Part shown: piece after piece, positions 11,245 to 63,520 of the stretch
How the letters are laid out: each line of letters starts with the position of its first letter
How positions within the stretch are numbered: position 1 is the stretch's first letter
Notes under the pieces: model-generated
What the model saw: the letters and a program-made list of their open reading frames with translations, nothing else
What the model was told of the DNA's origin: nothing
Database searches by the model: none
Translations under genes and position numbers: made by a program
Assembly (NCBI GenBank): GCA_958009085.1
Contig: OY253688.1
Coordinates: 620,001-684,000, forward strand
From: Protoeuglena noctilucae
Lineage: Eukaryota
Direction of reading: 5' to 3'
DNA length: 64,000 bases

Positions 11245-12808
11245 ATGACGGGGCCCCAGAAGCGGTCCACCGCGCTCAAGGTGCAGTTTACGGACAAGGA
11301 CGATGGCGAGGACGACGTGGACGATGCTTCGAAGCGCATGAAGGCGAGGGCGCGTGCGGACGCGCGCAATAAGCCTCTCGCCGATCCACGGCAAGCTCGC
11401 ATCGCTTCGCGCGGCCTTTTCCCCCCGCAGGCGCCCCTCCTTCCGCCTCTTCCGGACCTGAGCCCGGGCCCCGCGCTTCTCCCGCCACTCCCGGTGCCCG
11501 CGCCCGCCCCGCCGGCCGAGCAGCCCATCGAAATCGTCGAGGACCCCTGGGTTTGCTGCGAGCGATGCAACAAGTGGCGCCGACTGCCCCCGGGGACGCC
11601 TCTCCCGGACGACGACGAACCGTGGTTTTGGTAAGGTCCTCTCGAGTCTTTTCCGCAGCGGCAGGCGTCCGCGCGGGGCGGGGAGATGACGGCAATGACG
11701 CGCACGCTTTAGGTCGCGCGAATACGCTTCGCTGCCGCCCGCCCGCAGCGAGATGAACCCGAACCGGCAATTCAGCAAATGCTCGGTCCCGGAGGAGAGC
11801 TGGCAGATGCAGGCGAGGCCGCGGGGCGCCGATTGCTGCAGCGCCGCGCCTGTCTCGCCCTCGCCTGTCGCACGCGCGAGCGTACGGATCCAAAGCGAGT
11901 CCCGGATGTTTATATTCGACTTTCTACCTTTCGCAGAGGCTTCCGGGCGTCATGCAGGACATCTACATCCCGCCTCCCGAGGCGTTTGCGCCACCGATGG
12001 GGCCGGGCTTTGGGGAGGTCAAACCGGGCCGGGGATTGGCGGCGAGGGGCCGGGGGAGGGGTCGTGGGCCGGGCAGAGGGTCGGGGAGGGGCACGGGGAG
12101 GGGAGGGCGCGGGAGGGGCAGGGGAAGGGGGCGGGGGAGAGGGCGGGGGCGGGGGCGGGCGCTTGCAGACGAGGTGAGGGGGGCTGGGGGTCGGGATGGG
12201 GAGGGGTTGGCATTAGCATGGATGTATGGGCGGTGCTCGGGTGGTTGTCATTTCTTGCTGCAGGTGTCCTTTGCACCTACTGTACATATCAGCCCACATA
12301 AAATACCCCCGTACCATGCATGAGAAGTACTGCGCAGTAACAGATAAGCATCATGACCCAATGATGTACTTTTATGATATATGATAGTACATACATAACC
12401 ATTAGCCTCTCTAATCCCTCTCTCTCTCCCCAGGGCGAGGACGCGTATCTCTCCACGCTGCCCCCCTCGCTCCGCACGCTGCCCCTCGACGCCCTGCAAG
12501 CCTGCCGCGACGCGTGCCGTGTACTGGCACAGAGCGGCCAGTGGACCGATCCGACCGACTGCCTCGTGAACCCATCGGCGCCCTTATCAGTGCCGCCACG
12601 CTGGGTGTGGTCCGCCATGCGCGAGCTGTGCCCCGACCAACACCGCGTAGCCGTGCAAGCGGCGGACGCGGTGACGGCGGCGGCGTACGTGCGGCTCTCG
12701 GGGTTCGCCAGGCAGCAAGCGGCGGAGGCGGCAGAGGCGTGTCAGGCGGCCATTGCCGAGGCCGGGAGGGTCGCGGCGCTGGCGATGGGGGCCGTGCCGT
12801 GGGAGTGA
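11245..12808 (+). CDS. CW-type zinc finger protein with RG-repeat tract
   Basis: WVCCERCNKWRRLP..PWFC|EMNP..CSVPEE (zf-CW) joined by intron 11631-11748. Long (GR)n tract at 12040-12160. Last exon 12434-12808. Confidence 0.85.
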
Positions 12809-13273
12809 GGGGGAGTGGGGAATGGGGTGGATGGGGGGTGTGCAGTGTTGGCTGTGGAAGTGAGGGTGCTGGTTGGGGAGGTGGCGCTGGCGATGGGGGC
12901 CGTGTTGTGGGTGTGGGAGCGAGCGAATGCGACCAAGGTCGACAGTCACGTTATATCATAGACATGCGTCCCTTGCCTTTGCTCATGGTTTGCTCCTAAA
13001 GCCTGGGTACAGGACCGTAGTGGGCGGTAGTCAAATGCTGCCATCGCCCTTCACTCTACATAGTATTAGTAACCCCCGACAGCCCATAGCTCTCGGGCCT
13101 CTACTCACTAGAGGTCGCCCATTCAATTGTTGGCGATGGACGTTCACGCGTCATTAGTATGAAACAAAACCAAACCAAACTGTAACAACGTGTTACATGC
13201 AAGCCGAAACTTGCAAACGCAGCTCAGCACTTGCCACATCCCCACCATTCATCAACCCCCCTTCACACCCCCC

Positions 13274-15966
13274 TCACACCCACGTCCCCTGCGTGACGCT
13301 CCGCACGCTGCACGCCTCATGCAAGTTACTGCACATCCTGACCACATCCGCATCGGAGCTGGGATCGACGTTCCTCGCCCGCAGCTGCGCGCTGCGTGCC
13401 CAGCAGGCCCGCGTCTCCGCCTGAAACTTGCGCAGGAAACTAGCGACTTTCTTGTCCAGGAGCGTTTGAAACCGACCGGAGGTGGGGTCGCCGGCGAAGT
13501 CCACGCGAGAGACCAGGCGAACGCCCCCACTGTCCTGCAATCACGAAAAGGGGGCCTGACATCCTGAGTGACGAAAGCACGGGCATGACATTTCCCATCA
13601 TGGCAGACAAGACATGGCCATAACTATTACTTCAATGATCAGTTAGCCCACCTCACACTCATCCACTTCACACCTCCTCTGCTCCACCCAGCCTCACCTG
13701 CCCCCTCACCCCACCACCATCACACCCCACCCCACCCCACCACCCCTCGCCCCCTCACCTGCCCCCCCGATCCCCCCCCCACGCTTCCCAAACGCCGTCT
13801 CTCCCCCAGACGTCTCTTCTTCAGACGATTCCCCGGCCTGCCATATTTGAACGCTCCCCAGCGCCACACCCGCCGGTATCACCAGACCGTTACTCAGCAC
13901 CGTACCCTCAGGACCCTCAGCCCCACGCTTCCCACGCATAGTCAATGTCTTCCCGTCACCGCTCGACGCCTCCCGAGAGCTGCCAGATGCCGCCGCCGTC
14001 CCAGCCCCCCCATCAGCCCGACAGGCCATCGCACCCGCACCCCCACCACCCGCACCCGCCCCGTCGTTGCGAGTGAAGCATCGCAGCAGGCGAGAGAAGC
14101 CCCCGGCCCGCTTTCCAGCCGCCTCGTGGCCCAGGAAGCCCGGCACCCCCGGCGGGGCCGTTTCTGGCAGGAGGTCGATCGTCAGAATGGTGACGTCGTC
14201 GTTGAGGCCGTGGGCGCGGCCCGTCCGACGCAGCTGAGCACAGGGGAAGGGATGGGGTGGTGTTAGGTGGTGTTAACTTGCTTTGCAAAGGCGAGAAAGA
14301 GGGTCAGAGTGGGGGCAAGCGTTGAGTGGCGGTGGTGTGATGGCAGGTCGAGTGGGTGAGCGTGACTGCTGTATCCTAAGTTTGCGCACACCCGCCCCGC
14401 TCTGCCCCATCCCCCCTCACCAGCTTGCGCCCCGCCGCCTGGCAGTTGAGTTTGCGCGCACACACACCCACACACAAACACACACACACCCCCACCCACC
14501 CACACACACACACACACACCCACCCACCCACACACCCACACATACCCACCCACACACGCACACTCTAACCCCTCACCAGCTTGCGCCCTGCCGCCTGGCA
14601 GTTGAGTTTGCGCACGCGCGCGACCGTCGCCACGTCGCTGCCCTTCTCCACGTCCCACAGCCCGTCCGTGGCAATCACGATCCGACACCCGGACTCTGGC
14701 AGGCGGTACTGGGCCACGCTGGGGGCGCACGTGATGGGCTCGCCCACGTCGAAGTCGCCAATGCCACGACTGCGACATGGGGGGTCGGGGTGGGAGGATT
14801 AGAAGGTAACATGACCTAACTTAGCTTAAACCATCCACTGCCAAAAAGCCCCCTTTTTCCATGTCCCCATGTGCCATGCCTGCCTCAACAAACCCTAGCT
14901 CGCTTGCCCCATCTCACTCGCTTCACCCCATCTCCTCACCTGACCGCCAGCCCCCCCGGCCACACCCGTAGCGGCCCGATGCCCGCATACCTGTCCCTGG
15001 CGACTCCCTGCAGCGACACGTCCAGCCGCCGGACGATGTATCGGGGCTCATAGGGCAACAGGCGCTGCCTCTCTAACTCGCTGTCATCCAAGCGGTGGTC
15101 CTCCGTCAGACCCACGACGTCAGAACCGGTGTCGACGTAAGCCGAGGAATCTCCCAGATTCGCCACCGTGATGAGCCACCCCGTCTGCAGCACGATGGTG
15201 CACGTGGCGCCCGACGAGATGCCCGCGGCTGCAAACTTGCGCTCCACCGCCGCCAGCGCCAGCGCCACCGCCGCCCGCAGCTGCGCCAGCCACTCGTGGA
15301 TCGAGGCCTCGTTGTCCGCCGGCCAGGGCCCCACGGGCAGACGCCGGTGGATTTCCCGGTGTATCGCTCCCATGCTGAACTGGGCGGCCTCGTGGCCGTT
15401 GTGACCATCGAACACCGCGTAAAGCGAGTAGCTCGAGCCGTCCAGCACCAGCTCCGTGCCCGATCCGGCCGCGGGACCCTCCACGAACTCCAGCTTGTCG
15501 CCTTTGGACCCCGCCGCACGCTCAATGCGGTTCAGGTCCGTCAGGGTCATGCCGCAGGCCGCCTGGATGGCGCGCGTGGCAAACGCCTGCCCGCGATGCA
15601 CGGACTCGCGCGTGGGCCATACCGTGCCTAAACGCACGTGGTGCTTGTCCTCGCCCTTCAGCAACCCGACCGTCGCATCCACTTTGATGCATGGGAGCGT
15701 TGAGCCGAAGTAGCGGGCCTTCTGCGGGGACGAGGCGCGGGCGAAGCATATTGAGGGGGCAGATAGGAAGACAAATGCCAGAATGAGGTGCAGGGGGCGT
15801 CGCAGGGCCGGCGCAGCGGCGGGCGGGCGGGGCATTGCAAGCGTACCAGGGCAGGGACCTCGTCGAGGTGCAGCGCATCGGCCGGGGCGCTGAAACGGCC
15901 GAACTGCTGCAGGACGTTGTTGAACAGCCCCGCGGGAGAGCTCGCGGGGCCCAGAACCGTCGTCAT
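13274..15966 (-). CDS. PP2C/PPM family protein phosphatase
   Basis: KGED, AVFDGHNG, SGATCT, VANLGDS, LTEDHR, GPLRVWPGGLAVS|RGIGD, IATDGLWD and NDDVT motifs across exons. Confidence 0.93.
14455..14565. repeat. CA/CAC-rich microsatellite in PP2C intron
   Basis: Runs of cacaca/caccca. Confidence 0.8.
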
Positions 15967-31674: not shown

Positions 31675-34600
31675 ATGTACGCGGCTTCGGAAGCCCAGAA
31701 TTCCACGGGCACGGGCGCCATGAGCGTCAAGAGCCCCGGGAGCGTCAAGCCGCCCTTGGCCCCCGTGGTGTCGCGCTCTCGATCTGAGAAAAGCCACACC
31801 CTGGGCCCCCTCATCGCCGAGGCGTCGGCCGCCCCGGGTCCCCCCGCGCCGGTGCGATCGTTGGAGGAGCGTTCCGTGGACCCCGGGGCTTACGACCTCA
31901 CACCCCGACGGTCGGTGGGGGTCACGTTTCGCGATGCTGAGGGGCCCAGGTGGGTGGGTGAATGGGGGGTGGTGACAGTGGATAAAATGGATGGGAAAGG
32001 GAGCGGATGAAGTGGGTGGGCTGGATTGAGAGGGCTGTCTCTCACGCCACTCCCAACGTCCCACCCTTCATCTCACAATCGCCCCACTCTCACCCACCCA
32101 CCCAACCCCCCTCCCCACCCCCCCCTATGATGCAGTCGCTCCCACCGCATCTCCGGAATGGGCCAGCAGGCTCCCGCGTTGAAGCACAAGCGCAGCAAGA
32201 TGGCGTCCATGCCGGGCATTCACAGGGCGGAGGGGGACGAGGGGGAAACGGACACGGCGCCACAGTGGCTGCAGGAGGCAGTTGAAGCGCATAACAGGGT
32301 GAGGGGGTGATGGGGGGTGGGGGGGGTTCAATAGGGGTGGGGAGGGTGCACAACAGGGTGAGAAGTGAGTGGTAGTAATGACGAATGGTGGGAGAGTGTG
32401 CTTGCTTGAGTGGGGGTGCATAGGGTGATGGAGGTAGAAGGGATGGCTGCAGGAGGCAGTCGAGGCGCATAACAGGGTGAGTGGGAGATGGGGGGTGGTG
32501 GGGGTAATGGGTATTATGGACATAAACCGGGGCTGGTGGATCAAAACAGACACCCTGTCACCTGCGCTACTGACTGTCATCTTTCCACTCACCTCTCCCT
32601 CCCCCCCAGCGCTACACCGGCACATCCCTGGTGGAGGCCGACCCCGGCTCCCCCCCCCTCCACCGACAGCGCCCGCGTGCAGCAGCGATCGCGCATCCTC
32701 TCGCGATTCGCGGACTCGTCATCCGTCGCCGCGCGCGACGCCTTATTCGCGACGCACGCGGGGGATGACGAGCACACGGGGCGGGGACTGGGAACGGGTG
32801 CGGGTGCGGGTCCGGGTGCGGGTGCGGGGGTGGGTACATCGCGACTTCAATCGTCGTCCAATCACCCCGGCGCCCTGCCACCGCCCCGCCTGAGCACGCC
32901 GGCGAGGAGTTCGCAGGGCGAGGCGCGGGCGGGGGGGGTTTCGGGATCCCAGTTGCGGGGGGGGGGGTGCCCGGGTCAACAGCGACGCCGGGGCTAAGAA
33001 AGACACCGTCGGGGTCGTCACGGCATGCGGGGGGAGTGCAGAGCAATGGGGGGGGGAACACGGTGAGCGAATGAGAGAGATGGTATGGTAAGTGGTGCAG
33101 TGATTGCCGACATGGTGAGGGGATGAGGGAGGTGGGGGAGTGATGGCATGCGGGGGGGGGGGTGCAGAGCGTGGGGGTAACACGGCGAGCGGGAGATGGA
33201 GAAATGGTGGAGCGATGGCAAAGACCCCATACAGCACCCCATATCTCACCCCACATCCCTCTCTTCCCCCCCCTCCCCGATGGCCTCCACCCCCCGCGGC
33301 GGCACCCACCACGGCGGATGGTCCAGCGCCGCCAGCATTGGCCAGAATAGCGTTGCAGGAAAGGGGGGGTCATCGAGAGTGGTGGCGTGGGGTGGGTCGG
33401 ACAGCGTGGGGTCGGCGGGGGCGTCGGGGAAAGGGGCGGATAAGGCGCCGGGCAGGGCGGGGAGCGCGGATAGGGGGGGTGAGTGGGTGGGGTGGTTGTG
33501 AGTTTTGATCTCGACTCTTACAGTTCCAACATCTAACAGCCTTCATCTTACAGTCCTACATCTTACAGTCTATCTCTGCGCATCACTCCCCGCAGTGTTT
33601 CTGGACTCCAATAACTCCAGCACCAGCGCCCCCTACCGCCACCACCGCCGCCCCAGCGTGTGGGCCTCGTGTTGCTGTGGGGGAGGGGCGGTGGCGGCGG
33701 AAGGGGAGAGGGCGAGGGGGAAGCCGGGTGAGTGTTGATATCAGTGGTGATGTTGATATTGTGATAGTTACAGTAACTATGACAAACACTGACGGTGTTG
33801 TGTGGGGGCCGTGGCTGCGGAAGGGGAGAGGCCGAGGGGGAAGCCGGGTGAGTGAGGAGACAGCCATGGGAATGGGAATGGTAATAGCCTTGATAGTGAT
33901 AGGGATAGGAACACTGTGTTTGCGTTCACCAATGCTGCGCCTGCACCGTCGCTCCCCATCTCGCACACCCTTGCTACCCATCTCCCACTCCCATCTCCCC
34001 CTCTCCCACTTACCCACCTTCCCCATCCCCATCATTCACCTCCCCATCATCACCCCCTCTCCCCCCACGCAGCCACCCGTGCTGCCAAGGCCAGCACCGT
34101 GAGTGTTGGGAAACACACGGGGAAAGCCACGCCGTCCGTCACTTTGAGTGTAGTTAATGATATAGTAACAATCCATCAATAATGGTCCGTGTTGCATGGC
34201 GTTGGTTGATTGTCATGATTACACACAGCCACGCCGTCCGTCACGGTGAGTGTAGTTAATGATATAGTAACAATCCATCAATAATGGTCCGTGTTGCATG
34301 GCGTTGGTCGATTGTCATGATTACACACAGCCACGCCGTCCGTCACGGTGAGTGTAGTTAATGATATAGTAACAATCCATCAATAATGGTCCGTGTTGCA
34401 TGGCGTTGGTCGATTGTCATGATTACACACAGCCACGCCGTCCGTCACAGTGCGTATCATCAGTGACATAGTAAGAAGTAATACCACACTATGTCATCTT
34501 TCCTTCCTCATCAACTGGTGCCTATCGCACCCACACCCACGCCCCTCACTTCCCCCAGGGCCAGCCCCGCCGCAGCCGAATGCGCTCTATGAACGGCGTG

Positions 34601-35331
34601 AATGCCAGCGTAAGCGTGGTAGACCAGGTGAGACATGGAAGGGGTCAGAACAAAGAAGCAATACTTGTTTTCTCCAAGTTAGGTTATGGCTTCACCTATG
34701 TATCGCTCATGTCCCCTATTCCCACCTTCCCAGGTGGCCGCGATGGTGCAGCGTTTTGAGGACCGTCATTTGGGGTCGGCGCAGCTGAGATTCGATGCCG
34801 AGACGGTGGCGGCGGAGGACCCCTCGCAGCTGCAGGACCTTTCAAATATCGGGAGGGCGGTGGCGGAGGTGAGGGGGTGGTAGATGGGGTGGTGGGGTGC
34901 GTATGGAGTGGCGGAGGTGAGGGGGATGGTGTTTACTGGTTACTGAGGGCGGTGGGGTGGGGACTGATAGTGGATTTGTCTAACATTGGCAGGGCGGTGG
35001 CTGAGCTGAGGGAGATCAGGTGGTGGTGGAGATGGGGTGGTGGTGGGTGGGTTGGGGTGGGGTGGGTGGGGCGGTGATGGATGGGGTGGGAATGGAATGG
35101 TGGGGTGGTTGGCATGTGGTGGTGGTGTCGCGGTGGTGACACAACAGGCAACAAATTTGAGTGGGAGTGGCAGTGATTGCGCGTGTGTGCTCTCTCAATG
35201 CCTCAGCATGACACTCTCGTGTTACACACTCGCAGCGTTACCTGGGCAAGGACGCCAAGCAGAAGAAGATAAGGCAGCAGGCGGAGCGGTGGATGGAGGA
35301 ACACGCGGAGATGATCGCAAGGGGGGTGTAG
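31675..35331 (+). CDS. Hypothetical low-complexity multi-exon protein
   Basis: Exon chain with GT/AG boundaries ending ..DLSNIGRAVAE|RYLGKDAKQKKIRQQAERWMEEHAEMIARGV*. The frame is broken near a poly-G run at ~32957. Confidence 0.5.
34125..34448 (+). repeat. 102-bp tandem repeat, ~3.2 copies
   Basis: agccacgccgtccgtcac starts at 34125, 34227, 34329 and 34431; units nearly identical. Confidence 0.97.
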
Positions 35332-39217: not shown

Positions 39218-39577
39218 GGCTGCCTGGGTATGCTGTGCGGTGGTGGCAGCAGAGGGATGGGAACTGGAGGGCTACGGCTCGCACGCGCGCTGTGAAGCCG
39301 GCTACATGCAGTCAGAAACCTGTCCCTGGCAAGTAGCAGCCCGAGACGCAAATCCCCGTGAGTGAAAGCGCCCAATAACGGTTTTAGTATCCCCTACCGG
39401 CGTCCGGAGGGTATGGGCATCCCGCAGAACTGCTCGGGTGTGCACGCATGCCGCGCTTCTCATTGCCCAGAGCCTGTCGCGCGCGAAGGCCGCGCCGCCC
39501 ACCAAGTCTGGATCATTTCAACGCGAGCAGCCCTAGCTACACTGCTATCCGCAACGATCACTAGCCACGCGCGAGCA

Positions 39578-41782: not shown

Positions 41783-44700
41783 ATGCCTGCAGGGCGGGGG
41801 CAGGCGGAGGACGCGGAATGTGTGCCGCTCCCCTTCGTGTCGGCCTGCTGCCCGCCCCAGATGGCCGCCCATGCGTCGTGGACGGTGGACCGCTTCATCC
41901 GACTTCAGAAAATTGGCGAGGGATTTGCCAGTCACGTGTTTTTGGCAATCGACACGCTCGGCCGCATGCGCGTCGCGCTGAAGGTGCGTCGCAGCTCCGC
42001 AGATGCTCGCCGCGCGGCGCCGCGGCTCTGCGACGCGTCACCTTGGCAATGCCGCGTTTCTTCCTCTCAGATATACCAGAAAAAGAACCTGACCCCGGCG
42101 CTGCTGGCGTCGGTGCGCCACGAGGTGTCGGTGCATGGCCGCATCGTCCACCCGCACGTCCTGCCCCTCCTGGCCGCGTTCGAGGACGGCGGCTATCTGT
42201 GCATTATCACGTGGTGAGCACGCGACGAACTGCATCCGGGCGGAGCTCCCAGGGACTTCGCAGCCGCAGCGCCCGCACAACTGCACTTGGCGCGCTGGCT
42301 CCCACTGTCCCGCACGGCTTGTTGCAAACACCTGGTCCCATTACATACACGATTACATACATGTCTAATTCCGCGTTTCTGCCCTGCGCACCCAGCGTCG
42401 CGGAGAACTCGGACCTCTTCCGCCGCCTCCCCGACATCCGCCGTGACGAGCCGACGGTGGTCAAGCACATCCTGGGGCCCCTGCTCTCGGCCCTCGCGTC
42501 GCTCCACATTGCGGGGTACATCCACAGGGACATCAAGCCAGAAAACATCATGCTGCAGGTGCAACATGCTGCGCGCATGTTGCACCCGAGGTTCTCGGGT
42601 TGCGCGCACTTTGCACACGAGGTTGCACGCTCCGATAGCAGAGCTGCTGGGGAGACGCAAACACGCGCAGGGTTGCCTGCACGCTCCCATTCCCGCCCCT
42701 CTTCCCGCCCTCATTGGCCTTACACCCTGCTCTGCGCTCACCGCCTGCACCCCCACTCCCACCCCCACTCCCGCACCCACTCCCACCCCCACCCTCACTG
42801 CCACCCCCACTCCAACCCTCACTCCCACTCCCACCCTCACCGCCCCACCCTTCCCCCCTCCCCCCAGGGCTCCCACGCGCTCCTCGCGGACTTTGGCTTC
42901 GCTATCTGCCACCGCCGCCGCCGCGCGCTCACCCGCCTGGGCACGCTCCAATTCATGGCGCCTGAGGTGGTCTTGAACGACCCGCACGACAAAGCCACGC
43001 ATCGCGACGCGGTGCCGCGGGGCGTGCGCCTGCCTTACTCGGAGACGGTCGACGTGTGGGCGTTGGGGGTGGTGGCGTTCGAGTGCATGACGGGCGCGCT
43101 GCCCTTCACGGGGACCACCGAGGACGACGTGGTGGACGCGGTGCTGAGGACGAGGCCGCAGTACCCGGGGACGCTCAGGTGAGGGGGAGAGGGAGTGGGG
43201 GAGTGAGGGTGGCAGAGTGGTAGCAGCAGTGAGAGTGAGGGTAGCGAGCGTCATGACCAAGAGTAAGCGTCTTACATGCAATCGTCTGCATCGTATGGTC
43301 ACTGTTCACCCTTCGCAGTCGCGAGGCGGTGGAGCTCCTGAAAGTGTGTTATAAAATCATGACCGGTGTCATCGTGTCAATTATGCTGGTCACACTTCTC
43401 GTTATTATTGCAGTCGCGAGGCGGTGGAGTTCCTGGACCTGTGCCTGGCATACGACCCCGGCAAGCGAGGATCGGCCGTCGACCTCTACTACCACCCCTT
43501 CGTGAGTGTCACACGGACGGGCGATGGGCTGGCTGGGCACGCTCCCACGTGCACGTTCACGCACATCATCCCACTCAGCACATGTGCCAGCTGCGCTTCT
43601 CAACAGCACGTCTGTCCATGACATGACGTCACCCCAGCTGCACTGTTAACAGCCAGAGACGCCATGCCATGCGCACGCATCATCGCACATCGTCAGCGCC
43701 TCAAACGCTCCTGCTGGCTCCCACCCCACCCGATCCACCCCGCCACGCTCCTTCCTCCCCCTCACTCAGATCCGCAAGCACATGCCCCGCGACAACTGGC
43801 ACAAGCTGGAGCCGTCTAATTGGGCATCCCCCGAGGCATCTGCCACCGCCATGGCAGCCTTTCCCGCCCTCGTGCCCTCCATGTGCCAGGTGAGCCTGCG
43901 ACATGAGAACTGCCAGACACTTGCCGTACGGACTGCGGAATGCGAGAGTCACTCGTCGGAGTTAGCTTCGATCACCACGAGCTGACTGCGGCCGATCAGC
44001 GCAAGCGATTCGCATGGCATGAGACGCCACCACTCATCCCCCTCGCCCCCCCACCCCCTCCATCCCTCCTCTCTCACCTCGCTCCCTGACCCCACTCCCT
44101 CCTCCCCTGCCCCCCAGGCCCCCCCGCCAGTCACTGCAGATGACGGCGCTGACCCCGACCCCCGCACCCCCTCCGCCATCCGCCGCGCATGCGGCTCCTT
44201 CGCTCGCCCCAACCACGAGCCGGACACGCTCACTATCGGCGGCCAGCGGGACCGGTTCCGCGCCCAGCACTCCCAGTTCCAATCCAACCTGCCCCTACCG
44301 CCGCCCTCGGTGGCGGGGTCGGCTGCCAACTCCCTGCCCATGGGGAACGCCCCGATGCCCTGGGGCCCGCCCACGCGCGACTGGAGCGACCCCGCCAACG
44401 CCCCGCTCAGCCCCGGCCGCGCCGCACTGCCACCCGTCCGTGTGTGTGCCGGCGACCCTACAAGCGACCTCCGTGCCCGCGCAGTCCAGGGCTCATTCGC
44501 CCAGGCAGCCGCCGCGGCGGTCCACAAGTCCGCGCTCAGCTCCCCCGCGCTCGCCTCCACCCGCGTCCGGCCCAACCCGCGCGCCCCCCAAGTCGCGCCT
44601 GTCGACTCCGGGCAGTCGGCCACCGCCCCCGCACCCTCGGGGCGCAGCTCGGGCATGCTGGGGATCGGGCTCTGGCGCAGCCTCTCCCGGGGCGTGCGGC

Positions 44701-46491: not shown

Positions 46492-49116
46492 ATGAGCGCG
46501 GCGGGCTTCTGCATGGATCGGTTTCGCAAGGTGTCAAGGCTCGGCTCTGGGGTCGGCGGGACGGTCTTCCTGGCCATGGACGCCGTATCCAGGCAGCAAG
46601 TCGCCCTCAAGGTTAGGCGCGCGAGAGAGTTCCCCGGGCACCCACGCCGATTCCGCGCGGGACGGCGGACAGGCCGTGTTTGCCGCGCGGTCGGTTCGAG
46701 GGCCAGCCGACTGTAATGCTTGCCGCGCGGTCGGCATGAGCTTAGGGTCTGTCGTCTCCTCGCCCATCCTCAGGTGTACAAGAAGAAGGACCTGTCGCCA
46801 CCATTGATCCAATCGGTCCGCTCGGAGGTCCGCATTCACGCGCGCCTGCGTCACCCGCACATCGTGCCCTTTTACGCCGCTTTCGAAGACGAGACGCACG
46901 TATGCGTCGTGACCAAAGCCGCCCAGGACTACGATCTCTTCCAGCGCATGTCTGATATCCGGCGCGACGAGAGGACCGTCGTGAAGCACGTCGTGGGCCC
47001 ACTCCTATCCGCGCTATCGACTATGCATCTCGCAGGCATCATCCACCGGGACGTCAAGCCTGAGAACGTGCTGCTACAGGCAAGCACGTTTTCTGCCTGC
47101 ACATTGTCATGCCTCCCTCGCTCCAAGTTGCACGCCCTCGGCCCATCAGCGGCTGATGGCTGCCGTCTTAGTGGGCCAGCAGGTGGGTATGTAGTATCTA
47201 GACTAAGGTCATACCCCTGTGGGGATGCCCACATGCCAGAGCGACATGCCTGCCTGTCAGCCACGCACGCACTCCTGTGCCTGACATCTGAGCGCCTCAC
47301 ACCTTTACCCTAACCTCCAGGGCTCCCACGTGCTCCTGGCCGACTTCGGGTTCGCCCTCGCGGGCCGCGAGCGCGCCCTGACCCTCCTGGGCACCCTGTC
47401 CTTCATGGCACCTGAGCTGATGGTGCACGTCGACCGCGACTCGGGGCACGCCACGCTGCGGTCCGAGGTGCCCCGCGATCGGCGCGCGCCGTACGGGGAG
47501 GAAGTGGACGTGTGGGCCCTGGGCGTGCTGACGTTCGAGTGCCTCTTGGGGCGGCTCCCCTTCGCGGGGTCGTCGTACCGCCAGGTACTCGACTCTATCT
47601 CCGGCGACCCCATCCGGCTCGACGGGCAGCTCAGGTAAGAGATGAGAGAGGAGGTGCGAGCTAAGCGCGTTGAGAGGTACATGCACAGCTTCAGGGGCAA
47701 CAGCTGCCTTTGTATCACACTGATAGTGTGGTATGTGCCTCGTGTCACAACTCCGACACGCGCCTCGGGACTCAGCGACCGGGTGCTGCTCTCTCCGCAC
47801 CCACGAGGCGATCGACTTCCTTCGGCAGTGCTTCACATTCAACGCTAGCGACAGACCCCACGCGACGGAGCTGTTCGCGCACCCGTGGGTGAGAAACATT
47901 GCTGATGCAACGTTGATGACCATACCATTAAAATACCCTCTTGCATTCTCGCTAGGGCGCGTGCCAAATGTGCATCACAGCTGCGATTGCCATTAACCCG
48001 TGACCCGCGTCTTTGACTTGACTTTCGCAGATCACCAATCACATCCCCGCCAGTGTGTGGGCCTACCTCCACCCCACCAAATGGGCGCCCATTTTCGTCG
48101 CCGACGACAAGGGCAGGCCGTCGGGTGAGCATGGGCGGGACAGGATCGAACGAGGGTGGCAGCGGCACCCCACGCGCTACCTTCACCTCTACCCCGCCAC
48201 AGCGCTCGCTCCCCCATCCCCCACACCCCCGCAGCTGCCCTATCCACTTCAACACCCTCGCCATCGCTCTCCCATCCCCCACGCCTCCGCAGCTGCGCTC
48301 TCCACCGACACCACCCTCACCACCGCGCCCGTGTCGCCATGCCCCGGTCGTGTGCCCTCTCGCCTTCACATGGTCGTCACCGGGTCCCCCAACCACTCCG
48401 CCCCCGGCCCCGGCGCCGACGATACCAACGTCCCTTCGCGTCCTTTCCCCGTCGCCAGCCACTCCCTGCAACTCTTCCCTATCAGCCACGACCCCTCTTC
48501 GTACGACGCACAGGCGCAGCCCTCCCCTACCACCGCCGCCGACCCTTCGCGGCCCTTTCTTCCCAACAAAGACGCCCCGTCTCCCCGCGTGAGAGTTTCC
48601 GCGGCGCACCGGCGCTGGGCCGGGCGCGGGGTGGCGGTGGTGCCCGCGCCGCGACTCCATGACGAGGCGGGCGTCGCACCGGCGCAAGAGGGGCGCATCC
48701 ACGGGGCCAGGGGAGCCCAGGCCGCATGCGGACTCGACGGCGGAGTGGCGTCGGCTCGGCGCAGCGGGGCGGTGCCCTCTGCCTGCAACAGCGCGCACTC
48801 GGTGGGAGTGGGGGCGCTTGCGGCATTGGCGGCGCAGCCCGCGACGTCGCTGGCCGGGAAGCCCTCGGTCGGCGAGGCAATCAGCGGATTGACGATTCCG
48901 TGGGGAGCGCGGTCGACGCGGGGACGCGGGCTGCCGGTCACGGCGTCCGCGCCGTCGCTGGCCGGGGACGGGAGCGGCAAGTGGGCGCGGTATCAATCCC
49001 GCACGCGCCGCACGGCGTCCGGCGAGGAAGAGGAGGAGGAGGGATCGACCGTGCGCAGCGTCGCGGAGAGCGTGAAGGCGAGGGCGCGAGGCCGCACTCC
49101 GCTGCCCACTCCGTGA
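46492..49116 (+). CDS. Aurora-like Ser/Thr kinase, tandem copy 2 (start may be further upstream)
   Basis: LGSGVGGTV, VALK, IHRDVKPEN, LADFG, TLLGTLSFMAPE, VDVWALG. Confidence 0.92.
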
Positions 49117-49552
49117 CGGCCACGCGACGCTGCCCGTCCTCGCCCCGCTCGCAGGCCGCGGCCCGAAGAGTGCTTTTCTGCGGGGCCCTTTGACGTAGCG
49201 AAATCCTTTCCTTTTAACTTTTTTCCTTCTGCGCGCACGGGCGGGCTTCCCTTTGCCCCCCGACCCTTAGCGCATTGCGCCGGTCCTTTTCAGCATCGCT
49301 TTGAGCTTCGACATCCTTGTTAGATTTGAGTCGGCAAGCGCGCAGCTGTGCGACGGCTCGTAGCCGCTGCTGTTTTTGGCACGCCTTCCTTCTTCATCCC
49401 TCCCCTCCAATACAATGCCTTGCTCTGCCCTCGTCTGTGTGAATGTGGCGCCAGCACTCCACGACGCAGCGTCATTCATCCGCGCGCTGTGGCATATCCA
49501 AAACGTGTGGCCAGGACAGCTGCTGCCGCTGACATGAGGTTATTCCCTGCCA

Positions 49553-52500
49553 ATGGAGTTTAGGGCCCTGCGAGCACTCTCTGCGTGCAATTCACGCTTG
49601 GGGGGGTTCCAGCAGTTGCTGCGCGAGCAGCGAGGGGAAGCGCGTGGTCCTGAGCTTGAGGGAGCGAGCGAGATGAACGCTCTTCTGGAGGCTCCGGAGC
49701 TCCCGGGGGACCCCATCCGGCTGCCGTTCTTCTCCTCCGCATGTCCGCCCGAGTTCGTCGCGCCGCTATCGCAGCGGCGCTTTCTGCGGCTCCAGCAGAT
49801 CGGGGCAGGGATGATGAGCACGGTGCACCTGGCCGTCGACACCATGACGAAGAGCAAGGTGGCTCTGAAGGTGAAAACGTTTGGGGCGAAGACGCGGCGG
49901 CGCTGGGCGCGCGGGCGAGCGACGCCCGTAACGCCCTGCCGGCCTAATGCTGCCTCAATGTGCCTCCGTGCGCCGTTTGACCCTCGAAGCACGCCTCTAC
50001 CGCTGCCGCTGCAGATGTATCTTCTCAGCTCTCTCTCGCCGGCTTTGCTCAAATCCGTAAAAGCCGAGGTGGCAATACAAGTGAGTGACGTCGTCATGGG
50101 TCGTCCCAGCGTCGCAGCTACCCCGCAGCCACGGATGGGCGTTTCACGCGCTGCTCCGCTTTTCTACCACCCCAGGGCCGTCTCCGCCACCCCCACATCT
50201 TGCCGCTCTGGGCGGCCTTTGAGGATGGCAAGCACCTCTGCATCGTGTCCAAGTGAGAGAGCGGCGGCAGGCGGGCTATGGGGGCGGAGAGAGCGCGCAA
50301 CGGATGTATATAATCGATCTCGATGGCCTGATGCGGGTCTCCCGTGAAACCCGGCTCCTTCGCCAAACTCCCGTCCGGCTGCGCAACGTCGTTGCTTTTC
50401 GCGCCTCGCAGGTACGCGGAGGGGACGGACCTCTTCCGCCGGCGCTCGGCTGTCCGTAGGGATGAACCCGCGGTGGTCAAGCACATCGTCGGGCCCCTTC
50501 TCTCGGCGATCTCGTCCATGCATTTGGCCGGCATCGTGCACCGGGACATAAAGCCCGAGAACGTCCTCCTCGAGGCGAGCCGCGCCCTCTCCGCGATGCG
50601 TAGCGCCCGCGCCGCGCCGCGCCTCTACCCTGTGCCGCGCGTCGCGGCTTCTCGCCTAACGCCCGCTCGCCGCCTCGCCCACGCTATCGCTCCCCATTTC
50701 CCGCCCCCCCCGCGCCCGCGCCGCCCCATCACCACCGAAACTTTCCATAATATGAACCATTTCATCTTAATCCTTCCATTTCCAGGGTTCCCACGCCTTC
50801 CTGAGCGACTTCGGCTTCTCCGTGAGCCTGCGCCACCAGCGCCCCGTGACCCGATTAGGCACCCTCGTGTTCATGGCGCCAGAAATACTCGTGGCTTATC
50901 CGGACGGGGAGGGCAAAGATTCCGGGGCGGGCGTGATGCGGAGGGACGCCAAGAGGGACGCCAGGGCGCCTTATGACGAGGGGGTGAGATGGGTGGGATG
51001 GAATGGGGGTTTGTGAATGGAGTTGATATATGTGTGGTAATGTCACACGGCACTGTTTGTGCATATATGAGACGCGAGGGCGCCGAACGACGAGGGGGTG
51101 AGGGGATATGAGATGTGTGGGGTGGGGCATGCGGGATGGGAGATGGGGGATGGGGATGCAAACAAGTGCACAGTGAGCGACAGTGGAGTAGACGAGCACA
51201 TGCAGAATGGGCCTGCGCTGCCCCTCCCATCTCTCAAATCTCTCACTACCTCCCCCCCCCGCTGTGTTGTGTGCGCATGTGGGTGTGTTTGTTCTGCCCT
51301 CTCCCATCTCTCAAATCTCTCACCACCTCACCCCCCCTGCTGTGTTATGTTCCTCTGCAGGTGGATGTGTGGGCGCTGGGTGTGCTGACCGTGGAGTGTT
51401 TGACGGGCCATGCGCCATTCCATGGGGAGTCGGATGAAGACGTGCTGAGGAGCATCGAGGGGGGGTGGGAGATGGGGGGTTCGGTCAGGTGATGAATGGG
51501 GTGGATGAGAGAGTGGTGATGATAGGGGCTGTGGTGAGGCAGTGGTTGACAGCGACGGCGTGTTGGCCCACTCTACTGACACCATCGTCGTGCCTTGGCC
51601 TGTGCTGACAACACCCCCCTTTCTCCCCCCCCCCCAGCCCCAACGCGGCTGACTTCGTGCGCAAGTGCCTGACCGTCGACGCCAGAAACAGGCCCGACGC
51701 CCTGGACCTGTACCGGCACCCGTGGGTGAGTGAGGGGAGAGGAGAGGTGTTTGAAACGCCGTGTGTGTCGTGTCACAAGCCATGGCTCATTGGCAGTGTG
51801 TGCGTGTGTATGCCCGGCAAGCTATGTGCATACTCCCTCACCCCCAGATCCGCGGCAACATGCCCGCCAAGCTCTACGCACACTCACTCCCCCACTCACC
51901 CCCTCACCCCCTCACTCCCTCTCTCACTCACCCCCTCACTTCTCTCTCTCCTCTGCAGATCCGCGGCAACATGCCCGCCAAGCTCTACGGCTACCTGGAC
52001 CCCACGCGGTGGATGCAGGGGGCGGCAGACCCCACGCCCATGACGGTGAGCAGTGTGTGGGGTGATGATGTAGGGAATTTGTGACGGAGTGGTGCTGTCA
52101 TGCTGAGCGGTGTCTACACCCTCACTCCCACCCCCACTGCCACCCTCACCCCCACCCTCCCCCTCCCCCCCGCAGTCCCCCTCCCCCACCTCCTCCAACC
52201 ACACCACCCCCACCTTCCCTCGTCCCGACTCGTTCGCCATCGCCGCCCTCCCCACCTCCCCCCTCCCCTCCCTCCACCCCCTCGCCGCCGCACTCCGCGT
52301 CGCGCCATCCCCCGCAAGCAGCACGGTGGTCAGTGCTCACAGCGCCGCCCCCCGCCGGCCCCGCATCTTCTCGACACGCCAGTCGCGCCACCCCGGCAAC
52401 CCCGGCACCCCCACCCGCGCCTCCGCTGCGCTCCGGGACCCCTCGCTGGGCCTCTCGGCGCACTCCGCTACCCTCTCTGCCACCGCCGCGACCGGCAGCC

Positions 52501-53012
52501 TCGCTCCCCGCACCGATGACGAGCGAGACACCTTTGCCGCCAGAATGCGCGCGCAAGGGAGGGTCGGGGTGCCGGACAGTGCGCGCGTGCGCGAGGCGGG
52601 GGGCAAGTCCCGGAGCTTCGCGAGGGGTCTGGGGGAGGAGGGGGCGTGGGGGGCGTACGATGAGGGGAGGACTGGGCACAATCCGATGGGAGTGGCTCCG
52701 ATGTGGGCTGGGGAGGATACGATCGGGGATGGCTATGGGGCGGTGGCGATAACCGGGGGCAAGGGCAAGCGGATGTCGCGGTGGCTGGTGAGTGGGGGGG
52801 GTTGGTGGGGTGGGCGATGGGGCAGTGTGCCCCCATCGCAGACGCACGCTGTCGTGCCTGTCAGCACGCCATGGTTATCACAATCACATAGTACTGAGTA
52901 CTATGTGACACAGATATATTATGAGTCTTGTCTTATTCGCCTTATCTGCTTTCTTTCCTCGCAGGACGCCCTGCTCTGCCTCGGGGGCGCCCACCAGGGC
53001 CGGTGCCTCTGA
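49553..53012 (+). CDS. Aurora-like Ser/Thr kinase, tandem copy 3
   Basis: IGAGMMSTV, VALK, VHRDIKPEN, LSDFG, TRLGTLVFMAPE, VDVWALG. Ends DALLCLGGAHQGRCL*. Confidence 0.92.
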
Positions 53013-56520: not shown

Positions 56521-59500
56521 TCACAGGTCGGCCCCGATCGCCCCCGCGGCCGTCCCCCGGCTGCCCGTCGTCATCCCCGCACTCCCCGCCCCCCTCGCCA
56601 TCGCCCCGTAAGTCACGTTATATGTCTTTGTGACCATATCCGCGTCGCTGCGCAGATTGTAGTTGCCGGGGCCGGGCTGGGCGGTGGTGGCGGTGGGGAA
56701 GCGACGGCCGGGACGCCACGCCATGCCCTGCGTGTGGTTGGTAACAGGGGATTTCAAATATTCAAATATCACGGGGAGGTGCACGCATCGTGGTTGGTGG
56801 TGCCACTAATTGGCGTGATGTCGCTGTCACCCTCGCTGCAGCCCTCACCCGCATGTTAAGACCCCAACGACCCTCACCCCCACAATCAACACACCACCCA
56901 CCCACCCCCCTCACCTTCCCCCTTTCCCTCAATCCCGCCTCATACTCCCCCGGGCCCGGGTGCACATCACTCCCCAGCAGCCGCGTCCCATCCAGCCCCG
57001 CATTGGCCGGCAGTCGCTGCGATGACACCAGAAAGCCATCGTCGCTCCTGCCACGCCCCTGCCGCGAGCGAGCGCGTGAGAATGCGTCGGGGGCGTTGTA
57101 GGCGCCGGGACCGGGCACGGGCTTGCGATACTCCACCTCCTCGCCCGTCACGTCGTCGCGGATGTAGACTGGGGGGGTGGATGGGGGGGGGGTGGTGGTG
57201 GATGGGTGTGGGGTGGGGTAAGGGTGGGTAAGGGGTGGTGGGATGAGGGGTGATGAGAGGGCGGGGTGGCAATAACAGCGAGTCCTTGAAACTACCATGC
57301 ACCCCCCACTTCCAGCCATGCATCGTCACCCACACCACCCATGTCACCCAACCACTACCCACCCCACCCACATGCACCCCCCTACCCCCCTCACCCATGC
57401 ACCGTCACTGTCACGTATCCGCACCCACACCACCCCTGTCATGCTAACACTACCCATGCACCCCCACCCATCCCATCCCCCCCTCACCCGTGCCGTCCCT
57501 TGTCCTGAACCTGTCCACTTGCGTGGAGAAGGAGCTGCTCATCTTGCCCCTCTCCTTATGTCTCTTGACGATCTGCGGCACGTCCGCCTGATACACGGCG
57601 GGGCCGGGGGAGGCGGGGGTGGCGGAGACGGGGCGGTCGTGGGAGGTGAAGCGGGGATTGGAAGTGCCGGAGACGCCTGGGGGATTAAGGTTGGAGGGGT
57701 GGGGATGAAGGGGTGGCACGAGTGAGGGTCTGGTGAACTGAGCAGCTGCTGCGTTCATTACTACCCCCACTGCCACCCTCTGTCACCCTCACCACCACCC
57801 CCACTGCCACCCCCACTGCCACCCCCACTGCCACCCCCACCATCCCACCCCATCACCCCTCACCAGTCTTGGATGCCAGCATTTGCTGCACTGCCCTCTC
57901 CGTCGACGCCACCGCCTCCGCCCTGTAAGCGCCTGGCCCGGGCGACCGGGCCCTTTCCCTTGCAAACCGGGGGGACGTGGATCGAAACCCGGCGGAGACC
58001 TTTTTCGGGCGCAGGCCGCGGGACTCGTAGGCGCCGGGGCCGGGGTTCTGTTGGGGGGGGTGAAGGGTGGGGGGGGAGATGAGGGTGGTGAGGTGAGGTG
58101 AGGTGAGAGATGAGGGGGTTAGGGGAGAGGAGTGGAGAGGATGTGAACTGAGAGGATGTAAGGTGACAGAAGATGCGATGAGATATGCCTGGCGCTCGGC
58201 ACACGCATTGCCCACCGTCCCCACAACCACCATCGATCCCACACATCACCGACCACCGACCCACCCTAACCCAGCCACAACCCCCGCCTCCCCTCACCTT
58301 AGTATAAGTCGGCGCATTCCGCATCGTATACACATCCTTCTGATACGCCAGTCGGTCCGTGGTGCTAAACGCAGGGCGAGGCGCGCGTGGCTGGGTATCG
58401 CCCCCACCACTCTCGCTCCCATACTCCCCCGGCCCAGGCCCGTCCCTCGCGTCAGGAAACCTCTGACTGCCGGAGACGAAGTTGCCGGTACCAACTGCCG
58501 TCTCCCTCGGCCCCCGCCACCCCTGCACTCTCGGGACCGTGTCGCGGAGCGGGGCGGCGCGTGGTTTGGTGGCGTCGGAGTGATAGGCGCCGGGTCCGGG
58601 GTTGCTGGACGTCGCGAAGAGCTGACGATCCTTGCGGGAACGCTGCGGGGGGGGGGAAGGGGGGTGGGGTGATGGTGAGGGGTGAAGGGGTGTGAAGGGG
58701 GGAGTGAAGGGGTGTTGGTGAGGGGCAACGGGGTGTTGCAGAGGAGAAGAGGAATAAAAGGGCTCCTTCACTCTCACAATCCCCTCATCCACCACTCTCC
58801 TCACATTCTCACCACCCACCACTCCCATCCACCACTCTCCTCACACCCCCTCACCCCTCCCCCCCCCCCCCCTCCACCACTCTTCTTCAACCCCTCACCT
58901 TCCCGAACTCCGTCGCCGACTCCCCCCTCCTCATCAGCGCGGGGTTGGGGTCATAATCGGTGGGGCCGGGCCTGTCGATGCCTACCACCGTGCGAATATT
59001 CGAGGGACGCTGCGGGACTAATTTGCCGTCGGGGCCCTCGTCGTAGCCGTACGAACGGAAACGGTCGGGGACTGCGAGGTGAGTATCGGGGGGGGTGAAG
59101 AGGTGAGAAAGGGTGGTGAAGGAGGGTGGATGAGGGGGTGGGGGTGTGCGGGGTGCGGGAGATGGTATGCACACCCACACCCACCTAACCACACCCACAT
59201 AACACACACATTTACGCACTCTCACACCCCCACACCCACCCACCCCTGCCTACCCACACCCCCCCATCCACACTCACCCGAGGGGCAGTTGGGCTGTCTC
59301 TCAAACCTCAGCGGCGACCCCCCCGACGCCGCCGGCGCCGTGCCGGGCGCATGGCCCCTGCTAGACGCGCTCGTGAGCCTGGATGCGCCCTGCTTGCCCC
59401 ACTTGGGCTGAACCTCGTAAGCGCCGGGACCCGGGTCAGCCACGTAAGAGGACCAGTCTTCGTAGAGGCGGTCGGTGTGGGAGCGGAAGGCGGAGCGGGC

Positions 59501-61251: not shown

Positions 61252-63333
61252 ATGCCGCGTGGCCAGCAGACCCGGCGCGCGACGCCCCGGGAGTGCCGGC
61301 GAGGCCCCCCGGTCTGGCCCCCGCGAGTCGCGCCTCTGGCCCGTCCGGGCCCCTCGTCACCACGACCATCGCGACCTCGACCTCCCCACGCGTCGCCTCG
61401 CGGGATTCCGCCCCCGCCCCGCGCCCCGCCTCGTCGCGCGAGCCCCGCGTGTTCTCCCCTCCCGCCCGCAGCCCTCGCGGGCGCGCCCCGTGGGGCCCCG
61501 CTCCGGGCCTCCCCGCGCGCGATGTCCTCCCGCTCCGTCCGCGCCTGCGCGGCGCCCGGCAAGCGCATCAACAAGGTCGTGCTGGCCTACTCGGGCGGCC
61601 TCGACACGTCGGTCATCCTGAAGTGGCTCCAGGACAAGTACGAGTGCGAGGTCATCACCTTCACGGCCGACCTGGGCCAGGGCGAGGAGCTGGAGCCGGC
61701 TCGCCAGAAGGCCCTGAAGATGGGCGTGCGCCAGGTGTTTATCGAGGACGTGCAGGAGGAGTTCGTGCGTGACTACGTGTTCCCCATGTTCCGCGCCAAC
61801 ACGCTCTACGAGGGCGTCTACCTCCTCGGCACCTCCATCGCGCGGCCGCTCATCGCCAAGAAGCAAATCGAGATCGCGGAGAAGGTGACATTGGGGGGGG
61901 GGGGGGTGTTATGATGAATGAGAGGGTGTGTCAAGTGGGGCGGTGCGGTGGGGATGGAGTGCGCTAGAATGTCACGGTTCCAAGCTAATATCTCGTGTGA
62001 CTGGCTGCTGAGCTGACTGCGTGGCTACGCGGTACACCCAAGCCCTCGCGCCTGCCCATCGACCCTGCACTCCGTCACCTGTCACCCCCCTCACCCCTCA
62101 CCTATCACCCCCTCACCACCCCATCACCCCCTCACCACCCCCCGTCACCTTAACACCCCATCACCCCCCTCCCCCCCTCCCCAGCTGGGCGCCGCCGCCG
62201 TCTGCCACGGCGCGACCGGCAAGGGCAACGACCAGGTCCGATTCGAACTGGGATACTACGCCCTGAAGCCCGACATCAAGGTCATTGCCCCCTGGCGCGA
62301 GTGGGACCTCAACTCCCGCACCAAGCTGCTGGCTTACGCCGAGGCGAACGGCATCCCGGTGCCGGCGTCCAAGCGGTCTGAGGCGAGAGTGGGGGTGGTG
62401 GAGTGGTGGAGTTCGGGTTAGTTATTGCGAACATTGGGAGCGGTCACAGAACGATCCGGGTTGGCATCCCTCACTCTAGCACCCATCCCTCCCTCACCTG
62501 CCCTCTCTCACCTGTCACCCACCCCACCTCAAACGCTCTCACCCACCCACCTCCTCACCCACCCCTCACTCTCACCCACCCCCCCCCCCCCCCCCTCCCC
62601 CAAACTCCCCCCAGCCCCCCTACTCCATGGACGCCAATCTCCTGCACATCAGCTACGAGGGCAATGCCCTCGAGGACCCATGGGTGGAGCCGCCCGAGGA
62701 CATGTACCTGCGCACGGTGGCGCCAGAGGTGAGAGACATGGGGGAATGGCTTGTCCAGATATGGTTTTTGCGTATGTATTCTGAATATTTGTATTTTAGT
62801 AATATTTTCTGTGTAAGTTTACACATGCTTCATAAATGGTTTTTTTTTGTTTTTAATCATGTTTTAGTTTGTATCTATACTAAATACTGGTAATTATCAA
62901 AAGTTATTGTTTCTGTACCCCCGCAGAAGGCCCCCGACCAGCCCACGTATTTGGAGATTGAGTTCGAAAAGGGCGACGCCGTGGCCATCAACGGGGAGCG
63001 CATGTCGCCCGCAACGCTGCTGAGGACGCTGAACGAGGTGAGGGGAGGGGTGGGGTTTGTGTAGAGAGATATATCCCATACCGTCACATGCTCGACACTG
63101 CTGAAGGGGTGTCGGTTAGCGATGCGGTGCTGCGGTAATACTGTCCATTACCCCATCTCATTCCATTCCACCAACCCATCTGACATCTCATATTATCACA
63201 TTCCCCAATTGTCACAGGTCGCCGGCGCCAACGGCATCGGCCGCCGCGACATTGTGGAGTCGCGCTTTGTGGGGATGAAGTCGCGGGGGGTGTACGAGAC
63301 GCCGGGGGGGACGGTGCTGCTCGAGGCACACAG
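61252..63333 (+). CDS. argG: Argininosuccinate synthase (start uncertain; 3' end interrupted by assembly gap)
   Basis: [75 protein letters not shown]. Confidence 0.97.
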
Positions 63334-63520
63334 GCGAGTGCGATATTGTGTTATTGATAGTGTTACTGTTACTGTTATGGTTATTATCAGTGATGGCTGT
63401 GGTGTTGTGTGTATGAGACGCCGGGGGGACCGTGCTGCTCGAGGCGCACAGGTGAAGAGGACGTTGTTCTTGTTCACAATATAGTGATAGATGTTTGACT
63501 GCATGTGCGTCTTCATCCAG

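Follow-up and report, generated by a model that had tools for sequence, protein, structure and literature searches.

In Daphnia pulex, the end of the neighbouring exon recurs as a direct repeat in newly gained introns, whose internal repeats have been ascribed to successive staggered breaks that make the introns longer (PMC4202315). End joining by polymerase theta leaves templated insertions copied from nearby flanks as well as tandem duplications of ~100 bp to 10 kb (median ~1 kb), with G-quadruplex motifs as a source of breaks; in plants, which lack HELQ, complex patchwork insertions result (PMC8654963). Templated insertions and small duplications of this kind are also the subject of PMC7368036. 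According to the Rogers model, an AGGT exon segment is duplicated in tandem, and the GT of the upstream copy and the AG of the downstream copy become the two ends of an intron (PMC3265369). Here, these systems, as presented in the portions of the papers drawn on, were compared with a 64,000-nt stretch of Protoeuglena noctilucae DNA (assembly GCA_958009085.1, contig OY253688.1, positions 620,001 to 684,000 of the forward strand; hereafter the window, numbered from its first letter), in which short copies of exon edges were found in the adjoining non-coding DNA.

Thirteen such events are present in the window (nine pairs termed c1 to c9 and four further events; Table 1). The copies are located 50–204 nt from their originals, in direct orientation throughout, 12 of them in introns and 1 in a 3' untranslated region (UTR). 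Among described phenomena, the Daphnia staggered-break repeats and end-joining scars come closest. With a probability of roughly 0.55, the copies were generated by error-prone repair of breaks or of stalled replication (templated insertion, staggered-break fill-in, small tandem duplication), combined with selection that retained the non-coding copies. About 1 in 10 introns of this 64-kb sample carries a datable exon-edge copy, some of them in several generations, and such copies constitute a direct record of a mutational process. Intron lengthening and the origin of splice sites have been argued mostly from few species (Daphnia and introner-bearing algae); the copies illustrate a way for introns to become longer and acquire spare splice sites.

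As in the Daphnia introns described in PMC4202315, the exon end is repeated within the intron, and one host intron (50984–51360) has no counterpart in two paralogues, which would be expected of a new intron. The order of copy, unique spacer and copy is also found here, with the spacer unrepeated in c1, c2, c7 and c8. Unlike the repeats described in that paper, the exon-derived part comprises 21–52 nt instead of 4–12 bp, the copies lie in mid-intron with a splice consensus of their own that is followed by a further 130–260 nt, and two or more of the other host introns are old, given that paralogues have an intron at the same position. With the polymerase-theta scars, as far as PMC8654963 was drawn on, the copies share their origin from flanks near the break, patchwork or repeated rounds, tandem duplications and G-run motifs; the patches are 77–100% identical to sequence 50–178 nt off. 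They differ from these scars by the occurrence of direct copies only and by tandem units of 76–102 nt, and may differ in microhomology, none of which was clear at the patch edges. Repeated rounds at one site and an excess of synonymous differences are further contrasts with the Daphnia repeats and end-joining scars as presented there. In a literature search, whose coverage was limited mostly to titles and abstracts, no description of 20–50-nt exon-edge copies in mid-intron was found.

Detection of the exon-edge copies

Nine exon-edge pairs had been listed in the initial annotation, and all of them were found in place, 77–100% identical. Ungapped matches amounted to 41/42 (pair at 14572), 36/38 (32266), 42/44 (33691), 30/39 (34836), 25/26 (43410), 23/26 (50963), 34/34 (51956) and 31/35 (12775). 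For the pair 63291/63410, the ungapped match was only 22/46 owing to a 1-nt indel, and blastn gave 91% over 45 nt. When the window was compared with itself by blastn, 10 of the 16 non-self rows (9 loci) were direct repeats 76–204 nt apart; the other rows were kinase paralogues, two palindromes and one 31-nt repeat. Four further events were added to the nine pairs, at 33022/33145 (spacing 123 nt), 34125–34474 (102-nt unit), 51218/51294 (76 nt) and 57317/57412 (95 nt). A peptide-level search of the window for further cases resembling c4 gave none.

The window was also scanned for ungapped diagonal matches with a score of at least 15 and a dinucleotide entropy of at least 3, excluding short-period repeats. 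At spacings of 60–400 nt, 14 matches at 11 loci were obtained, compared with 1, 1 and 1 in three outer bands of equal width. The same scan yielded 0 inverted repeats at 60–400 nt in the window, and composition-preserving block shuffles yielded 0 matches in 5/5 cases. Within the window, the excess of direct repeats at 60–400 nt is far above chance. A coding border was contained in 8/11 filtered loci (c1, c2, the 102-nt array and c4–c8); the three loci off borders were a C/T-rich non-coding stretch at 18471 and exon-internal repeats at 30347 and 48839. Without the complexity filter, a coding border was contained in 11/13 loci scoring at least 22, and the exceptions overall include a C-rich intron tract at 51881.

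Exon edges were set from open frames, protein homology and a crude gene finder, and neighbouring introns were backed by RNA joints. The gene finder over-predicts on both strands and was used as a rough guide only; a periodicity scan of G+C at third codon positions was too noisy.

Independently assembled contigs from two marine metagenome DNA runs match positions 32109–33157, 33166–34174, 34419–36009 and 44379–51640 with 0 or 1 differing letters. These stretches, covered at even depth, take in the 76-nt tandem duplication and four of the initial pairs (32266, 33691, 34836 and 50963). The contig pieces listed leave out c5 (43182–43482), c7 and the bridge of the array (34175–34418), and c1, c8 and c9 lie outside the compared stretch. 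Because the independent contigs match, chance and misassembly are excluded at c2, c3, c4, c6 and the 76-nt tandem duplication. That the copies are artefacts of collapsed haplotypes or of gap closing is hardly credible: the window is a draft with a 200-N gap, close to which the c8 copy ends, but the evenly covered contigs of both runs speak against such an origin, as do the substitutions in the copies, which represent a range of ages. Among JGI metagenome contigs, no allele or relative was matched by the ankyrin open reading frame beside c4 or by a degenerate pattern of the c4 peptide.

Table 1. Positions of originals, copies and associated features in the window.
Feature	Position	Strand	Description
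c9 original	12768..12815	+	last ~36 nt of coding sequence, TGA stop (12806-12808), start of G-run; open frame ends at TGA
c9 copy	12876..12923	+	presumed 3' UTR, 108 nt downstream; 81% over 48 nt; core 31/35
c1 original	14569..14613	-	last 37 nt of PP2C exon and donor GTGAGGGG
c1 copy	14413..14457	-	in intron; spacing 156 nt; 44/45 identical
c2 original	32266..32327	+	last 33 nt of first exon, donor, 29 nt of G-rich intron
c2 copy	32444..32505	+	spacing 178 nt; 92% over 62 nt
Extra pair	33022..33208	+	33022-33084 / 33145-33208; spacing 123 nt; 77%; first copy is a candidate exon end
c3 original	33676..33734	+	exon end and donor GTGAGTG
c3 copy	33796..33854	+	spacing 120 nt; 88% over 59 nt; core 42/44
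Micro-exon	34073..34099	+	27 nt; edges echoed by downstream array
Tandem array	34125..34474	+	102-nt unit x 3.2; 98% identical
c4 original	34835..34875	+	last 33 nt of exon (DLSNIGRAVAE) and donor GTGAGGG
c4 copy	34972..35012	+	spacing 137 nt; 78% DNA identity; same 11-residue peptide; donor now CT
c5 copy	43315..43340	+	in intron; GCAG and 22 nt of next exon start; 95 nt upstream of original; 25/26
c5 original	43410..43435	+	acceptor and kinase exon start; next two introns of the gene RNA-supported
c6 original	50957..50988	+	last 27 nt of kinase exon and donor GTGAG
c6 copy	51071..51102	+	spacing 114 nt; within intron 50984-51360
Tandem duplication	51218..51370	+	true tandem duplication; 76-nt unit; 84% gapped
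c7 third copy	51810-51843	+	older copy of 51845-51878 and start of its spacer
c7 copy	51845-51878	+	CAG and 31 nt of exon start; 34/34 identical
c7 original	51956..51989	+	acceptor and kinase exon start
Tandem-type duplication	57317..57487	-	~95-nt unit at 5' end of intron; unit starts few nt before donor 57487
c8 original	63290..63337	+	last ~45 nt of argininosuccinate synthase exon and GC donor (GCGAGT)
c8 copy	63409..63455	+	spacing 119 nt; 91% with 1-nt deletion; GT donor; 65 nt before 200-N gap
Protein kinase genes	41779-44220, 46400-48140, 49500-52800	+	three tandem paralogues

The pair at 12775 (c9) had initially been assigned to a stop-codon end, and the open frame indeed ends in TGA at this site. 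Two TGTAA words at 13181 (+) and 13193 (-, read as TTACA), 12 nt apart, look like back-to-back polyadenylation signals. Since the end of the frame and the convergent signals mark two gene ends, the c9 copy is placed in the 3' UTR.

Layout of the copies and their splice signals

In every junction pair, one copy continues the reading frame and represents the exon; its partner is on the intron side. Class I consists of sharp-edged patches of 26–62 nt (c1–c9 and the pair at 33022), made up of 21–52 nt of exon edge and a splice-site side of 3–11 nt, which is longer in c2 (29 nt) and in the pair at 33022 (~22 nt). The spacer between the copies is unique and 60–116 nt long. The templated inserts known from polymerase theta are shorter than these patches. 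Both copies of the 33022/33145 pair end in a donor-like sequence (CACG followed by G(T/C)GAGCG). Class II consists of true tandem duplications with junction and intron parts equally well preserved; the 102-nt array and the units of 76 and 95 nt belong here. In each 102-nt unit, 17 exon-like nt stand between an acceptor-like CACACAG and a donor-like GTGAGTG, so that the unit mimics the micro-exon upstream of the array; the second 76-nt unit extends across the acceptor at 51360 into the exon by ~10 nt. Pair c5 is intermediate between the classes, as the intron sequence preceding the copy can be aligned with the spacer of this pair (z 3.8).

In the youngest pairs, c1 (98%) and c7 (100%), the spacer is not repeated past the second copy, and a low-complexity tract runs on at either side of the patch; the c1 spacer is a (GT)n/(GGGT)n microsatellite. 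In both pairs, the patch looks like an insertion into an existing intron, or like filler between duplicated ends. Comparison of the spacer with the sequence past the second copy gave no significant match in c1, c2, c7 and c8, a weak match in c3 and c6 (p 0.04) and a clear match in c5 only. Simple tandem duplication as the origin of every pair was rejected on this ground.

Third copies are clear at c4 (34908–34930) and c7 (p<0.002), weak at c2 (32348–32362, p 0.016) and c1 (p 0.04), and unsupported at c3, c5 and c6. The third copy at c7 reproduces an earlier copy together with the start of its spacer; that event was therefore internal to the intron. A recurrent local duplication process that lengthens introns had been suggested from the pairs in the initial annotation. 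Recurrence is borne out by the identity range of 77–100% together with the possible third copies at four sites, and lengthening by the share of the copies in eight affected introns of 233–459 nt, which amounts to 35–67%. RNA-supported introns, at least nine among those listed, measure 90–390 nt.

As in the Rogers model (PMC3265369, PMC4974935), a short duplication within a gene doubles the splice signals, and the intron resembles the neighbouring exon. In the model as given in PMC3265369, the copied end of the upstream exon directly adjoins the downstream exon; in the window, in contrast, it is followed by its own donor and 130–260 nt of intron. Intron birth from a duplicated uninterrupted exon (AGGT segment) was tested on c6. 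Alignment of the intron start with the downstream exon scored 5 and 7, unrelated intron starts (n=22) reached up to 15, and this origin was rejected.

A layout of copy, unique spacer and copy would also be expected from the insertion of a short, introner-like mobile element with an unusually long target-site duplication across the junction. In introners, which are found in marine algae, the insertion and its duplicated target can supply or preserve a splice site (PMC9860276, PMC11282704), and four or five of the spacers are AT-rich islands in a genome of 65% GC. Unlike the introners described in these two papers, the copies belong to no multi-copy family in the window, lack terminal inverted repeats, and have a duplicated length that is long and variable. 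Self-blastn of the 64 kb, with ~100 introns, revealed no repeated intron or spacer family; spacers compared all-versus-all share short motifs only, and terminal inverted repeats exceeded those of shuffles in 0/10 spacers. The duplicated length varies from 26 to 62 nt, unlike that produced by a transposase, and three events are plain tandem duplications. A mobile element is accordingly very unlikely as the source. Transposon features were rejected within the window, for want of a spacer family and of terminal inverted repeats.

A consensus GT donor is kept in 5/7 donor-type copies and CAG in 2/2 acceptor-type copies, and judging from these motifs the spare splice sites look usable. Use of the donor copy of c1, c2 or c6 is predicted to lead to a stop within 15–20 codons, and use of the c5 or c8 copy site to a frame shift. 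The acceptor copy of c7 would add 37 in-frame codons with no stop, and the donor copy of c3 would add 40 stop-free codons in one of two frames, which fits the downstream exon phases. Selection of the copies as alternative or decoy splice sites or as coding extensions is nevertheless improbable. The consensus kept in 7/9 junction copies, the predicted stop-free additions at c7 and c3 and the excess of synonymous differences (see below) would agree with such functions. Against them stand the early stops and frame shifts predicted for the other sites, frameshifts and replacement changes within the copies, and paralogous introns that have no copies; moreover, in c4, where the peptide is most conserved, the donor is dead and an in-phase acceptor is lacking. 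Nested or recursive splicing through the copies was rejected, as no consistent in-phase acceptor was seen by eye ahead of them. The copies pose a risk for annotation: a simple gene finder placed micro-exons inside two of them, and splicing at the copied sites would, in two cases, insert in-frame codons without a stop.

Origin of the copies

If the copies stem from error-prone repair, breaks or stalled forks would arise in introns rich in repeats and G-runs. Template switching would then give templated insertions, fill-in of staggered breaks would leave filler DNA, and end joining of over-extended ends would produce small tandem duplications. Selection would purge events that disturb the frame, so that copies on the non-coding side survive; of these, copies with exon sequence would stay recognisable, whereas low-complexity intron copies would blur fast. 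The presence of the copies, their layout, the recurrence of events at single sites and the intron length gained are established, whereas we infer both the repair pathway and the share of selection and detectability in the pattern. Decay within the copies fits this reading because it is that of unselected DNA: the c5 copy encodes Leu where the exon and both paralogues have Phe, Tyr is replaced by Asn in c6, c8 carries a frameshift, and the donor of c4 is dead. The position of c9 at a stop codon instead of a splice site, and the duplication of a whole unit including part of the intron in three events, were likewise counted in favour of repair.

Several observations weigh against this reading. 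In the 30-nt flanks of 10 pairs, no clear microhomology was found at the patch edges, where 1–4 nt could be masked by ambiguous edges and subsequent substitutions. Templated insertions can arise in either orientation, and inverted copies numbered 0. G-quadruplex motifs are weakly enriched (7/13 loci versus a baseline of 29%). All 13 events include a coding border; no exon-interior sequence copied into an intron, and no young copy lying wholly inside an intron of normal complexity, was found in the window. By rough estimate, random patches would miss the border more often than meet it. Finally, exons and copies differ mainly at synonymous sites: 16/20 differing codons are synonymous, and 17/23 base differences are at third positions. 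For a freely decaying copy, ~39–43% synonymous codons would be expected, and the excess is significant (p 2e-4 to 8e-4). In c4, 7/7 codon differences are silent and, at a DNA identity of 78%, all 11 residues of the peptide are unchanged, although the copy has a dead donor and no in-phase acceptor ahead. Without c4, the tally is 9/13 (p 0.03–0.05). This excess counts against repair because neutral decay of a copy does not predict it. Two features thus remain unexplained by repair: the border contact of every event and the synonymous excess.

Border contact could mean that the mechanism itself is anchored at the junction, with breaks or priming at the exon/intron border and preferential copying of exon edges. 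Possible anchors are the start of a G-run (G-quadruplex or R-loop), pausing of a polymerase at the splice site, or the end of an RNA intermediate at the border. Besides the border in all events, such a mechanism is favoured by the intron-side end of the patch, 3–11 nt beyond the border in 8/10 patches, by G-quadruplex motifs that start at or a few nt from the border in c2, c6 and c9 and end at it in c3, and by the share of the exon-derived part, which is always the minor one of the unit (8–52 of 76–204 nt). It is opposed by the location of c9 at a stop codon, by the intron-internal third copy of c7, and by the AT-rich intron starts without G-runs of c3 and c8. A focus on borders can also be mimicked by selection and detectability, and the sample comprises 64 kb. 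Part of the focus could stem from selection against copies in coding sequence, or from the difficulty of recognising copies within low-complexity intron DNA. Anchoring at the junction is on balance rather unlikely. The focus on splice junctions suggested in the initial annotation may be real, in that a coding border is included in all events, but the 12775 pair lies at a stop codon and the third copy of c7 arose inside the intron. Of its overall interpretation, recurrent duplication and intron lengthening are supported; a process aimed at splice junctions, and competition of the spare sites in splicing, are hypotheses.

For the synonymous excess, candidate sources are a diverged functional homologue as template, past or present coding use, or selection acting via copy-to-exon gene conversion. 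Border-anchored copying in which the copies are possibly tied to the exon, by a functional template or by selection against copy-to-exon gene conversion in a very large population, would address both features; we regard it as doubtful. If true, it would be an undescribed route of intron growth and splice-site birth. If border anchoring or the synonymous excess held genome-wide, more than random repair error would be at work.

Alternatively, a break in a non-alignable intron could have been repaired from a diverged functional homologue (allele, sibling lineage or paralogue) and closed by end joining, which would leave the exon edge of the homologue, synonymous differences included, and its intron behind it. 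The synonymous excess, and above all its completeness in c4, would follow from such an origin; after donor-type copies, an intron of normal size (130–260 nt) leads to the acceptor, and RNA contigs that diverge by a few percent were found for a neighbouring gene in the same samples. Only 2 variant sites were found in 20 kb in the two DNA runs, however, so the alleles present are not diverged. The divergence of the copies from 0 to 24% fits poorly with one donor genome, and in c5 and c6 the copy is decayed while the exon keeps the state common to the paralogues. The window contains neither a second argininosuccinate synthase nor a second PP2C, and ten or more illegitimate joints per 64 kb would be extraordinary. 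A homologous donor is therefore improbable, and error-prone local repair is retained as the favoured explanation.

Genes and introns of the window

The window has a G+C content of 65% and a single 200-N run at 63521–63720. It contains spliced eukaryotic genes with Pfam matches to PP2C, dihydrouridine synthase, PB1, ankyrin repeats, three protein kinases and argininosuccinate synthase. The best named relatives are a pedinophyte, Ulva, Haematococcus and Chlamydomonas, at 44–50% identity. As green algae are the top relatives at only this level of identity, the host is taken to be a chlorophyte without a close annotated relative. For a 10-kb stretch, nearly all sampled words were present in marine metagenome runs.

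The third of the tandem kinase genes contains the extra intron 50984–51360, and the same region is an uninterrupted exon in the other two (42871–43176, 47324–47632). This intron may be a recent gain that carries an exon-edge repeat. Echo-bearing introns (233–459 nt) are very G-rich and C-poor in their 5' part and C-rich in their 3' part, and their ends consist of partly reverse-complementary words (GTGAGGGGG and CCCCCTCAC). Introns of the highly expressed minus-strand gene at 38300–41060 are mostly 90–188 nt long, with one of 390 nt, and are of ordinary composition. At 40199–40288 (-), a GC-AG intron starting with GCGAGTG is backed by RNA contigs of two runs; on the plus strand, the joint 40198>40289 reads CT..GC. 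In view of this RNA-supported intron, a GC donor at the argininosuccinate synthase exon (63335) is plausible.

In each of the two metagenome DNA runs, a second contig with roughly half the depth (17.8 of 32 and 7.2 of 16.3) shows an A/C difference at 43450. Two alleles or strains, in similar proportions in the two samples, are suggested by this finding. At 38320–38620 and 39663–39982, deeply covered RNA contigs depart from the window at several sites in every 100–200 nt, and the DNA runs contain the letters of the window only; the divergent contigs appear to be from an expressed close relative or a second gene copy in the same samples.

Tandem repeats of a partly palindromic 31-nt unit (GGGATCAC..GATCCC) are present at 1391–1452 and 10892–10973, 9.5 kb apart and in opposite orientation. 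For a (CGGGTG)n microsatellite at 32795–32828, word depths in the thousands with many loose ends were recorded in metagenome and metatranscriptome, as for a generic repeat common to other organisms. At 62000–64000, the G+C content falls to 51%, and an AT-rich island of 198 nt is located at 62736–62933 within the argininosuccinate synthase gene region.

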